A program made the position numbers and the translations under genes. Of a stretch of DNA of 64,000 nucleotides, positions 3,383 through 53,035 are shown piece by piece. The stretch's first letter is position 1; the number at the start of each line of letters is the position of its first letter. The stretch comes from Candidatus Magasanikbacteria bacterium RIFCSPHIGHO2_01_FULL_33_34. Its GTDB lineage: Bacteria > Patescibacteriota > Patescibacteriia > Magasanikbacterales > UBA922. Below the pieces are notes generated by a model that was given only the letters and a program-made list of their open reading frames with translations, did not search any database and was not told the origin of the DNA. Location: positions 73,012 to 137,011 of the forward strand of contig MFPS01000008.1 of assembly GCA_001782825.1 (NCBI GenBank), read 5' to 3'.

Positions 3383-5173
3383 TTAAGCTTTTTTTCTACC
3401 AGCTCTTACTCTATCTGTTTCAGTTAGTGCTTGTTTTCGAAGTCTTACACTTTTTGGAGTAATTTCTAGATATTCATCTTCAGACATGATTTCTAAACCT
3501 CTTTCTAGGGTTAAATCCATTGGTGGAATTAAATGAATAGAATCATCACTACCTGAAGCGCGCATATTTGTGAGTTGTTTTCCTTTGATTGGGTTAACAG
3601 TCATATCCATACCTTTGGCAGTGTTGCCGATTACTTGTCCTTCATAAATATCAACATTTGGTTCTACATACATGACGCCACGATCTTGAAGATTGGCTAG
3701 AGCGTAAGCAAGCACTTTTCCAGTGTGTCCAGATATCATAGAACCGACATTTCTTTTTTCTATTTCTCCGACATAAGGTTCAAATCCAATTACTTCACTA
3801 CACAAAATTCCTTCACCTCTTGTGTCTACTATGAATTCATTGCGATAACCAAGTAATCCTCTGGTAGGTATTTTGTAGATTAATCTCATGTGGTTTTGTT
3901 CAGGATTCATTGCAATCATTTGTCCTTTTCTTTTTGACATTTTTTCAATTACAATTCCAGATGAAGATTCTGGAATATCAATTGTAACCTCTTCAAATGG
4001 TTCGTGTTTTATACCATTAACTTCTTTTATGATAACTTGAGGTTGAGAAACTTGTATCTCAAAATTTTCTCTGCGCATATTTTCAAGCAATACGGCAATA
4101 TGCAATTCGCCTCTACCATATACTTTGAAAAAATCATTAGAAGAAAAATCAATTTTTAATCCTACATTTACTTCTAACTCTTTTTCTAATCTTTTTTTAA
4201 TTTGTTGAGTAGTAACAAATTTTCCTTCACGTCCAGCAAATGGAGAATTATTTACTAAAAAGTTAAGAGAGATTGTTGGTTCATCAATTTTTATAGTTGG
4301 TAATAGTTCTGATTGTTCATCTTTACAAACTGTGTCTCCGATATATATATCAGGTAATCCAGATATCATAACAATATCTCCAGCAAAAGCTTCATTAACT
4401 TCTTTTCTGTTGATACCTTCAAAAGTAAATAGTTTTAGAATAGATCCAGTTAAAGTTCGTCCATCAGACTTTTTAATAAAAACTTTCTCACCAGCTTTTA
4501 TACTACCCTGGTATATTCTGCCAATTCCCATACGACCAAGATAATTATCATAAGCTAGATTAAAAGGTTGAAATAGTAATGGTAGAGTGGTATCTGCTTT
4601 GGCAGCAGGAATTTTTGCTATGATTGTATCTAAAAGTGGGGCAAGATTGGTAGAGGTATCGGTAAGGTTCATTTTTGCGATTCCTTCTTTTGCAATAGTG
4701 TATACAGTTGTGAAGTCTAATTGTTCGTCAGTAGCACCCAAATCCATGAATAATTCAAGGACCTTTTCATGAGCCCAATCAGGTCTGGCAGCTGGCTTGT
4801 CAATTTTATTCAAAACTACAATAGGCTTGAGACCTAGTTCAAGAGATTTTTTTAAAACGAATTTTGTCTGAGGCATTGGGCCTTCTTGGGCATCTACAAT
4901 CAATAAAACAGAATCAATAGAACTAAGTACACGTTCAACTTCTGAACCAAAATCAGCGTGGCCTGGTGTATCCACGATATTAATTTTTGTATCTTTGTAA
5001 AATACAGAAGTATTTTTGGAATAAATCGTAATGCCACGTTCACGTTCAAGATCGTTAGAGTCCATTGTAATAGTTTGGTCAGTCAACATGCCTGTTTCTT
5101 GCATCAGTGCATCTGTTAAGCGAGTTTTACCATGATCTACATGGGCAATAATTGCTAGGTTTCTAATTTGCAT
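3383..5173 (-). CDS. typA: GTP-binding translation factor TypA/BipA
   Basis: 596 aa. N-terminus [24 protein letters not shown] with DTPGHADF and NKIDK GTPase motifs, an EF-G-like domain order and the TypA C-terminus. Confidence 0.9.
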
Positions 5174-6626: not shown

Positions 6627-7313
6627 ATGGGTAATTTTGATAGGGGTAACAGAAGGTCTGGTGGTGGTTCTGGTCGTAGTTTTGGTGGCAAGAGATCATT
6701 TGGTGGACAAAGACCAAGTGGACGTGATGATAGAGGTGGGCGTGATGGTGGTAGGCCAATGATGCACAGAGCTATATGTAGTGAGTGTGGAGATAGTTGT
6801 GAAGTGCCATTTAAACCAACCGGTAGTAAGCCAGTTTTTTGTAGTAATTGTTTTAGCAATCAAGAAGGTGGTCGTGATAGTCGTGGCGGTCGTGATGATC
6901 GTGGTGGACGATCTAGTAGTTTTGGTGGTGGACGGGATAAACACAGAGATCGTGATATAAATAGAGAAATGTTTGATGTTGTTTGTTCTAAGTGTGGTAA
7001 GGATTGTCAGGTACCATTTAGACCAACATCAGATAAGCCACTTTTTTGTAATGATTGTTTTGGAAAAGATAAAGGTAGTGTTGGTCGTGGCTCAAGTGAA
7101 GTCGTAGACCAAATAAAATTGTTAAACAAAAAAATCGATCAGCTTGTAGAAATGTTAAGTGCAAATGGTTCAAATAAAAAGAAAGAAAAATCTGAAGTTA
7201 AAACAGATGTAGAAGTAAAAGAACCAGTCAAAACAGTGGAAAAGAAAGAAGAAAAAAAACCAAAGAAAGAAAAAAAGCCAGCTGAGAAGAAAACAAAAAA
7301 AGTAAAAAAATAA
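6627..7313 (+). CDS. RGG/RG-repeat protein with two tandem C4 zinc-ribbon modules and a Lys/Glu-rich tail; putative nucleic-acid-binding protein
   Basis: Two copies of C-x2-C-x3-C-x-VPF(K/R)PT-x-(S/D)KP-x-FC-x2-CF (CxxC-x17-CxxC spacing). They are separated by GGRD/RGG repeats, and the C-terminus is KKEEKKPKKEKKPAEKKTKK. The DNA shows GGTCGTGAT-type tandem repeats. Confidence 0.6.
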   Translation: MGNFDRGNRRSGGGSGRSFGGKRSFGGQRPSGRDDRGGRDGGRPMMHRAICSECGDSCEVPFKPTGSKPVFCSNCFSNQEGGRDSRGGRDDRGGRSSSFGGGRDKHRDRDINREMFDVVCSKCGKDCQVPFRPTSDKPLFCNDCFGKDKGSVGRGSSEVVDQIKLLNKKIDQLVEMLSANGSNKKKEKSEVKTDVEVKEPVKTVEKKEEKKPKKEKKPAEKKTKKVKK

Positions 7314-10430: not shown

Positions 10431-10986
10431 TGGCTCGGCGAGTGGGATTCGAACCCACGACCAATTGGTTACACGTAATCCCTAGTTTTCACTAGCGCGT
10501 GGACTATATCATCACCCTCGCCAATATCCCAAAAGGAAATTTTGAGAAAACCTGCCCATATATGACAGGACGTTAGGGTGCGAAGCGCTTCCTATCCCTG
10601 TTAATTTTGAATTAACTAGGACAGTACTCCCGTACAAAGGCCATTCACTCTTTTAGAAAGAATTCAGGCAGGGATAGTCTCTGAACCTTCACAATATATA
10701 TTTATCACGTTTATCATCTTCTAACCTTTCAATAAAGGAATTATTAGCATGGTAAGTCGTGCAGAATAAATAAATTATTGTGCTTGGCTGCAGGTTACCA
10801 TAATCTTATTATAGATGTTAGGGTCCCTGTTTTTTACAATGTACACTGTAAAAATTTTCATCTTGCGATGAAACAATTCACTTCGTTTTCACCTCGATGT
10901 TTCTATCAAGGGCTGCAAATACAATTTTGATAAATCAAAATTGGCACTAGTCACAGCCAACTGCTCTACCACTGAGCTACCGCCGA
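10431..10986 (-). tRNA. tRNA-Asn(GUU) gene interrupted in the anticodon loop by a group I intron. Exon 1 is about 10953-10986 and exon 2 is 10431-10471; CCA is encoded.
   Basis: On the minus strand exon 1 reads UCGGCGGUAGCUCAGUGGUAGAGCAGUUGGCUGU. Exon 2 reads UAACCAAUUGGUCGUGGGUUCGAAUCCCACUCGCCGAGCCA. Joined, they give a canonical cloverleaf: acceptor UCGGCGG/UCGCCGA, D-arm GCUC/GAGC, anticodon stem GUUGG/CCAAU with loop CUGUUAA, T-arm GUGGG-UUCGAAU-CCCAC, and G73. U1-A72 plus G73 plus loop CUGUUAA matches tRNA-Asn. The junction is uncertain by about 2 nt; a Thr(UGU) reading is the alternative. Confidence 0.75.
10472..10952 (-). other. Group I self-splicing intron (about 481 nt, no ORF) within the tRNA-Asn anticodon loop
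   Basis: The minus-strand intron contains the conserved R element GGUUCAGAGACUAUC and S element GAUGAUAUAGUCCAC, which form the P7 core. A candidate P1 pairs the exon end GGCUGU with intron GCAGCC, placing U-G at the 5' splice site. The intron ends in G before the 3' exon. Confidence 0.75.
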
Positions 10987-11067: not shown

Positions 11068-11096
11068 ATTTTAACAAGATTATGTGATATTGTCAA
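11068..11096 (-). promoter_or_regulatory. Putative promoter for the tRNA-Asn gene (TTGACA, 17 bp, TAAAAT on the minus strand)
   Basis: Reverse complement is TTGACAatatcacataatcttgtTAAAAT. It ends about 75 nt upstream of the tRNA 5' end. Confidence 0.35.
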
Positions 11097-14126: not shown

Positions 14127-14199
14127 ATTTTTAAATTAATTATTTTTATTTGAAGATATTATATCAAATAATTTGAATTATTAAAATCAAATTTAATTG

Positions 14200-14270
14200 C
14201 TCGGGGACTTGGATTTGAACCAAGATAAACAGATCCAGAATCTGTTGTCCTACCATTAGACGATCCCCGA
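14200..14270 (-). tRNA. tRNA-Gln(CUG)
   Basis: The minus strand reads UCGGGGAUCGUCUAAUGGUAGGACAACAGAUUCUGGAUCUGUUUAUCUUGGUUCAAAUCCAAGUCCCCGAG. Anticodon stem ACAGA/UCUGU with loop UUCUGGA, T-loop UUCAAAU and a 7-bp acceptor stem. CCA is not encoded. Confidence 0.85.
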
Positions 14271-52950: not shown

Positions 52951-52964
52951 CACAGTCGGGGATC

Positions 52965-53035
52965 GTCTAACGGTAGGACTCTAGGTTTTGGTCCTAGGTA
53001 TCCAGGTTCGAATCCTGGTCCCCGAGCAACAAAAA
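52965..53035 (+). tRNA. tRNA-Gln(UUG)
   Basis: UCGGGGAUCGUCUAACGGUAGGACUCUAGGUUUUGGUCCUAGGUAUCCAGGUUCGAAUCCUGGUCCCCGAG. Anticodon loop UUUUGGU. The acceptor and D-arm are identical to the Gln(CUG) gene at 14200-14270. Confidence 0.85.

Follow-up and report, generated by a model that had tools for sequence, protein, structure and literature searches.

The classical group I introns of bacterial tRNA genes belong to subgroup IC3 and interrupt tRNA-Leu(UAA) at 34/35, tRNA-fMet at 33/34, tRNA-Arg(CCU) at 36/37, and tRNA-Ile(CAU). A survey of interrupted bacterial tRNAs (Williams 2020, bioRxiv 10.1101/2020.01.27.920355) extends the list from four classical cases to 21, including an 'Asn.4Ug' type that, according to Nakagawa et al. 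(PMC13011429), is sometimes miscalled 'Thr.2Ug' by the program tFind. The latter study (bioRxiv 2025; mSystems 2026) covered 95 complete Patescibacteria genomes, detected 22 group I introns in their tRNA genes, with insertion into tRNA-Asn(GUU) between positions 35 and 36 as the commonest class (15/22), and reported that both ARAGORN and tFind often labelled these genes as Thr(UGU) with an intron at 33/34. Subgroup IA was assigned to almost all of the Patescibacteria tRNA introns, and to 25 of the 28 introns at position 35/36; none of the Patescibacteria tRNA introns was placed in IC. Homing endonucleases were found in introns longer than 500 bp, those in tRNA-Asn being of the HNH family. Genomes in which one anticodon had both a split and an intact gene were rare. 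For the tRNA-Asn intron of GCA_016700035.1, self-splicing was demonstrated in vitro precisely at 35/36; the spliced product was sequenced, and an omega G-to-C change served as negative control.

The locus described here is a further example of this published, experimentally validated, and very widespread Patescibacteria class. It lies within a 64-kb stretch of DNA analysed as a whole (hereafter the window; ~31% G+C), to which all coordinates refer, on the minus strand unless otherwise noted. The tRNA gene occurs in two halves (10986-10953 and 10471-10431) that join to make 75 nt. The 5' exon (10953-10986, TCGGCGGTAGCTCAGTGGTAGAGCAGTTGGCTGT) supplies tRNA-Asn positions 1-35, that is the acceptor 5' strand, the D arm, the 5' strand of the anticodon stem, and C32 U33 G34 U35; the 3' exon (10431-10471, TAACCAATTGGTCGTGGGTTCGAATCCCACTCGCCGAGCCA) supplies positions 36-76, comprising U36 A37 A38, the 3' strand of the anticodon stem, the variable loop, the T arm, the acceptor 3' strand, G73, and an encoded CCA. 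The intervening 481-nt group I intron (10472-10952) has no open reading frame and ends in omega-G at 10472 (e515, where e positions are counted from the tRNA 5' end, e1 being 10986, so that the window position equals 10987 - e). The original prediction had described the two halves, the CUGUUAA anticodon loop, the encoded CCA, the length of the spacer, its terminal G, and the lack of an open reading frame, and all of these statements about the sequence hold.

Run in intron mode, ARAGORN assembles both halves into a perfect cloverleaf with CCA; run without that mode, it reports no tRNA at the locus. The check that the original prediction had suggested, a covariance-model search with RF00028 (Intron_gpI), gives with laxer Rfam filters a 54.2-bit match at 10899-10480, where the gathering score is 50, and E-values of 6.2e-13 in a local search and 5.6e-11 over the whole window. 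By contrast, a gathering-threshold run with default filters over the whole window missed the intron and listed only five ordinary tRNAs, and since this 64-kb run passed over an intron that scores above the gathering threshold, default-filter Rfam scans will under-report such introns. The split tRNA gene and its intron are confirmed as a real observation, far above chance. Its value lies mainly in annotation, since ARAGORN and Rfam under default settings overlook such a locus and it is otherwise liable to be mislabelled as tRNA-Thr(UGU), so that the genome would seem to be without a tRNA-Asn. The 64-kb window covers a part of the genome, and the split gene may be the only tRNA-Asn of the cell.

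Neighbouring genes are bacterial and of a CPR-like kind, and encode an ABC-F ATPase, a HAMP-PAS sensor, a cold-shock protein, GreA, a C39-like peptidase, DnaX, a SWIB protein, and a DUF87/TrwB ATPase. An identical GreA protein is present on at least 24 contigs from Rifle aquifer groundwater metagenomes, and on 8 of these independent contigs the 661-nt locus is 100% identical; natural variants of the locus sought by way of the identical GreA protein were all 100% identical copies, and so yielded no covariation. A 20-mer from the intron core (GAAGGTTCAGAGACTATCCC) scanned over 185,579 species genomes matched at least 120 loci, and 104 of the 120 listed are tRNA-Asn genes split as CTGT|...G|TAA in which the stems of the acceptor and the anticodon are both intact. 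The titles of the listed loci name mostly Patescibacteria groups, but also many 'uncultured Gammaproteobacteria', 'bacterium', and other taxa, while the nearest loci among the matches listed come from Magasanik-, Falkow-, and Paceibacteria MAGs (Patescibacteria/CPR). On the evidence of its gene content, the source of the samples, and the nearest loci listed, the host is very probably a member of the Patescibacteria (CPR).

Many MAGs titled 'uncultured Gammaproteobacteria' (TPA_asm) carry the Patescibacteria type of split tRNA-Asn (L022, L028, L034, L037, L043, L047, L049, L052, and others), and their taxon labels look unreliable. Another listed relative, L067 (CAYMID010000009.1), has on one contig both an intron-less tRNA-Asn(GUU) (7072-7145, minus strand) and a split tRNA-Asn (3631-4047, minus strand). 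The window gene has a 5' exon 100% identical to that of L067 and an anticodon arm identical to the one in the validated tRNA-Asn of GCA_016700035.1.

For comparative analysis of structure, the 481-nt intron locus was aligned with 66 ORF-less relatives (n=67). Pairing of the acceptor, D, and T stems is complete (100%) across the 67 sequences, and U516 A517 A518 at the start of the 3' exon are invariant. With P7 treated as a pseudoknot, the named intron structure pairs 92.7% of alignment cells, versus 36-50% in controls with displaced 3' partners. Compensatory two-sided changes occur at 39 pairs, and in 500 shuffles the values observed were never attained; the covarying helices are P2, P3, P6, P8, and P9, while P4, P7, and P7.1 are always paired.

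P1 (10911-10958; e29-34/e71-76) is formed between the exon sequence GGCUGU (10958-10953) and an internal guide GCAGCC (10916-10911), which places a U.G wobble at the 5' splice site, directly after CUGU. The original prediction had proposed this pairing. The U.G pair and the three adjoining pairs of P1 are found in 67/67 sequences. The P1 loop, L1, is 36 nt long and includes a hairpin at 10942-10923. An intron CCAAU within this loop (10940-10944) can also pair with exon GUUGG (10957-10961), mimicking an anticodon stem; this pairing is used in a weak 19.6-bit match to the Rfam tRNA model and is not kept in relatives. P2 (10893-10910; e77-82/e89-94; CUUGAU-AGAAAC-AUCGAG) shows compensatory changes at all 6 pairs over the 67 sequences. 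P3 joins GAAGUG (10879-10884; e103-108) to CGCUUC (10582-10587; e400-405), in a pseudoknot with P7, with 99% of cells paired and two-sided changes at 3/6 pairs.

The P4-P5 domain (10789-10875) was modelled by constrained folding. In it, UG (10875-10874) and CAGG (10829-10826) pair with CCUGCA (10794-10789) to make P4 (e112-113 and 158-161 with 193-198), which is paired in 100% of sequences and has one covarying pair (UA/AU/GC); P5/P5a occupies 10824-10797 (e163-190). P6 (10690-10782; e205-211/e291-297; CACAAUA/UAUUGUG) has compensatory changes at 6/7 pairs and, in the fold, would carry an A/U-rich extension of ~80 nt. The R and S elements recognised in the original prediction are both present, R at 10687-10673 (GGTTCAGAGACTATC) and S at ~10512-10498 (GATGATATAGTCCAC), and hold the two strands of P7, GACUAU (10674-10679; e308-313) and AUAGUC (10502-10507; e480-485). 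P7 is paired in 67/67 sequences and the CCC/GGG pairs of P7.1 (10673-10629; e314-316/e356-358) are invariant in 67/67, although the invariance of the 5' strands is partly by construction, as these fall inside the search pattern and their 3' partners outside it. P7.1 encloses an insert of ~39 nt and is followed by the P7.2 hairpin (10624-10592; e363-395). P8 (10513-10580; e407-411/e470-474; CACCC/GGGUG) encloses two hairpins, with 96% of cells paired and 4 covarying pairs. P9 (10481-10496; e491-506), a hairpin with a GAAA loop, shows compensatory changes at all 6 pairs, and is followed by the tail AUUACGUG ending in omega-G.

Both P7.1 and P7.2 lie between the 5' strand of P7 and the 3' strand of P3, here and across the relatives. 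Two helices in this position are reportedly a hallmark of subgroup IA. We infer from P7.1 and P7.2 that the intron is of the subgroup-IA type, in agreement with the assignments of Nakagawa et al.

The original prediction had preferred a tRNA-Asn(GUU) interrupted at 35/36 and had regarded the junction as ambiguous, with Thr(UGU) as the other reading. The ambiguity is real in this copy to the extent that a tRNA-Thr(UGU) gene with the same intron two bases upstream at 33/34 (...CU | UGUAA...) also satisfies the minimal U/G rule, in that the preceding exon base is U and the would-be omega is also G (ACG|UG). This is the very label that ARAGORN assigns when run in intron mode, with the intron starting after U33. 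Such calls are nevertheless a documented annotation artefact and not an open question, and the evidence from P1 and from the homologues is against a threonine gene. In P1 U33 pairs with A, and the partner of the wobble G is U35 in 67/67 sequences. The terminal nucleotide of the intron is G in 104/104 homologues listed under the Asn reading, versus 85/104 under the Thr reading, in which the remaining 19 have A or C; these include the closest exon relatives among the matches listed (L024, L027, L084, and L121, ending ACUG).

The body of the tRNA is likewise of the Asn type. U1-A72 and G73 occur in 104/104 homologues listed, in the intron-less tRNA-Asn of L067, and in E. coli tRNA-Asn, unlike the tRNA-Thr(CGU) of the window, which has G1-C72 and U73. 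Thr is set apart from Asn and Gln by these features, which do not distinguish Asn from Gln, as the tRNA-Gln genes of the window share them both; Asn is told from Gln by the GUU anticodon, which stands in the loop CUGUUAA after splicing, the acceptor-end features alone being common to the two. The tRNA-Gln genes are found at 14199-14270 (minus strand) and 52956-53027 (plus strand), with anticodons CUG and UUG. The spliced tRNA is identical to the validated tRNA-Asn at 61 of 72 positions. Its identity to E. coli tRNAs (Asn 50/74, Thr 49/75) is non-discriminating, and for this reason we relied instead upon identity positions, the P1 register, the omega-G counts, and the validated homologue. The spliced product of the homologue has been sequenced and joins at 35/36, and the Thr(UGU) call is a recurrent tool error (Nakagawa et al., PMC13011429). 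We therefore regard a threonine gene as exceedingly improbable: given the P1 register, the mapped junction of the homologue, the counts of omega-G and of U1-A72 and G73, and the G1-C72 pair of the window tRNA-Thr, Asn(GUU) at 35/36 is the right reading and Thr(UGU) at 33/34 the wrong one, as the original prediction had preferred.

The sequence itself, its Rfam match, helices upheld by covariation, and homology with an intron whose splicing is proven lead us to conclude with high confidence that this is a tRNA-Asn(GUU) gene, very probably of a groundwater member of the Patescibacteria, split at 35/36 by an ORF-less, 481-nt group I intron, probably of the subgroup-IA type, that is predicted to undergo standard self-splicing. 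A putative sigma-70-like promoter (11068-11096; TTGACA-17-TAAAAT with an upstream TG; 11/12 consensus matches), identified by consensus match, precedes the tRNA by ~80 nt, and judged by this match transcription probably starts there. The precursor transcribed from this near-consensus site would fold into the P3-P7 pseudoknot core and the P4-P6 domain, and pairing of the exon end GGCUGU with the guide GCAGCC would present U35 in the U.G wobble. Exogenous guanosine would then attack after U35, following which the terminal G (10472) would enter the G-binding site and the freed 3'-OH of U35 would attack before U36. This would join CUGU to UAA in the anticodon loop CUGUUAA and release a 75-nt tRNA with its encoded CCA. 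The predicted junction is ...GGCUGU + UAACCAAU, versus ...GGCU + UGUAACC under the Thr reading. Catalysis by the 481-nt copy is proposed by analogy with the homologue in GCA_016700035.1, for which guanosine-dependent self-splicing was shown in vitro.

At 481 nt the intron is longer than every ORF-less relative among the matches listed (212-437 nt), and the extra length is due to structured, A/U-rich expansions in L1, P4, P6, P7.1, P7.2, and P8. The most conspicuous is a two-hairpin insertion in the 5' strand of P4 (10831-10873), between the invariant UG and CAGG, the first hairpin having a GCAA loop. Insertions at the same site are present in 11 of the 67 aligned sequences, that is in the 481-nt intron and in 10 of its 66 relatives (L016, L024, L027, L047, L067, L084, L086, L109, L118, and L121). 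They always consist of two adjacent hairpins of unrelated sequence, flanked by the invariant UG and CNGG. As the two-hairpin fold recurs each time despite the unrelated sequence, it looks to be a real optional module, probably a peripheral domain that individual introns of this kind may have or lack. The ~39-nt insert in P7.1 occurs in no aligned relative. Within the P8 insert is a terminator-like hairpin (10551-10569; CCTGTC...GGCAGG, then TTTTCTC), which could be due to chance or could serve attenuation of pre-tRNA transcription.

It may be asked whether these expansions represent degeneration, such that a decaying, splicing-dead intron is lodged in a tRNA-Asn pseudogene while an intact, intron-less tRNA-Asn is encoded elsewhere. 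The unusual length relative to the ORF-less relatives listed would fit this explanation, as would the P7.1 insert peculiar to this copy, the internal terminator-like hairpin, and the precedent of L067, in which split and intact tRNA-Asn genes coexist. However, the core helices P1-P9 of the 481-nt intron are fully base-paired, a single closing position in P9 being the exception, and all positions invariant across the relatives are retained. The inserts are placed in loops, or else at sites where relatives also have structured inserts, both halves of the tRNA make a perfect cloverleaf with CCA, and split and intact copies with the same anticodon are rarely found together (PMC13011429). A pseudogene is therefore very unlikely, and in the expansions themselves we saw no sign, as far as can be judged from sequence, that the basic function of the self-splicing tRNA-Asn intron is altered. 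It is tempting to speculate that the P4 two-hairpin module and the other expansions make up a peripheral domain not yet described for IA introns, stabilising the ribozyme or tuning tRNA-Asn maturation in A/T-rich reduced genomes, with the terminator-like hairpin in P8 perhaps a further control point; we consider this idea a long shot.

Intron lengths among the matches listed are bimodal (212-437 nt and 543-723 nt), and the 481-nt intron falls between the two modes. In 35 of the 36 long introns (543-723 nt; L013-L129) the P1 loop contains an open reading frame of ~70-123 aa, the 3' end of which overlaps the 3' strand of P1. Two of these frames were tested against Pfam, and one matched HNH (PF01844) while the other had no match. 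The 481-nt intron, for its part, has no ATG-initiated frame of 30 aa or more (the longest being 28 aa), and a tblastn search of it with the relatives' open reading frames for an endonuclease remnant found none, the best hit (E 0.017) being on the wrong strand. It is accordingly not an intron of the mobile, homing-endonuclease type. Three relatives shorter than 450 nt (L033, L041, and L047; alignment columns ~45-215) retain in the P1 loop the 5' part of an HNH frame (…TATGCYGATCGTGC…), which suggests decay of the endonuclease as a possible source of intermediate lengths. The P4 insertion and the bimodality of length, which goes with presence or absence of the HNH gene, may interest those who work on the structure of group I introns.

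Set beside the classical IC3 introns, the intron has in common with them self-splicing of a group I type in the anticodon loop, a U.G pair formed by the last base of the exon, an omega-G, and the absence of an open reading frame that is the rule among them. The host tRNA and the position within it differ, and P7.1 and P7.2 are absent from IC3. Membership of IC3 was considered and is ruled out by the two helices between the P7 5' strand and the P3 3' strand, here and across the relatives. The HNH-bearing tRNA-Asn introns of Patescibacteria (543-723 nt) have a homologous ribozyme core and the same insertion site, but where theirs carry an open reading frame in the P1 loop, the 481-nt intron has a 36-nt L1 with no detectable remnant of one.

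With the Patescibacteria tRNA-Asn 35/36 class itself, the agreement extends to the host tRNA, the site, P1 (…CUGU / GCAGC), the …UG|UAA 3' junction, the P7.1/P7.2 arrangement, and even the Thr(UGU) miscall by ARAGORN. An Asn host with insertion at 35/36, which the original prediction had thought an unusual location, is thus a published class (Asn.4Ug; 15/22 Patescibacteria introns) with at least 104 homologous split genes. The published Paceibacteria tRNA-Asn introns match block by block (GUGAAUUG, GCAGCCAAG, GAAGGUUCAGAGACUAUCCC, GGGAGUA, GAAGCGC, GAUGAUAUAGUCCAC, ACGUG|UAA), and the 481-nt intron aligns over its full extent with the tRNA-Asn introns of the paper and with those among the matches listed, sharing long invariant blocks with GCA_016699245.1 and GCA_016700035.1. 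In Tables S3 and S4 of PMC13011429 the validated gene of GCA_016700035.1 reads ...CAGTTGGCTGT|taaaggcagcc...caggtg|TAACCAATTGG..., and the window gene has the identical anticodon arm and P1. The exact 481-nt intron does not appear in the examined part of that supplement. It is about twice the typical ORF-less length of the class (205-312 nt for the ORF-less tRNA-Asn introns given complete in Table S3; 212-437 nt among the matches listed), with extra hairpins in L1, P4, P6, P7.1, P7.2, and P8. The locus raises no new question; its contribution is to add to a known class a large, ORF-less, and heavily expanded member, far more expanded than the validated 234-nt intron of GCA_016700035.1.
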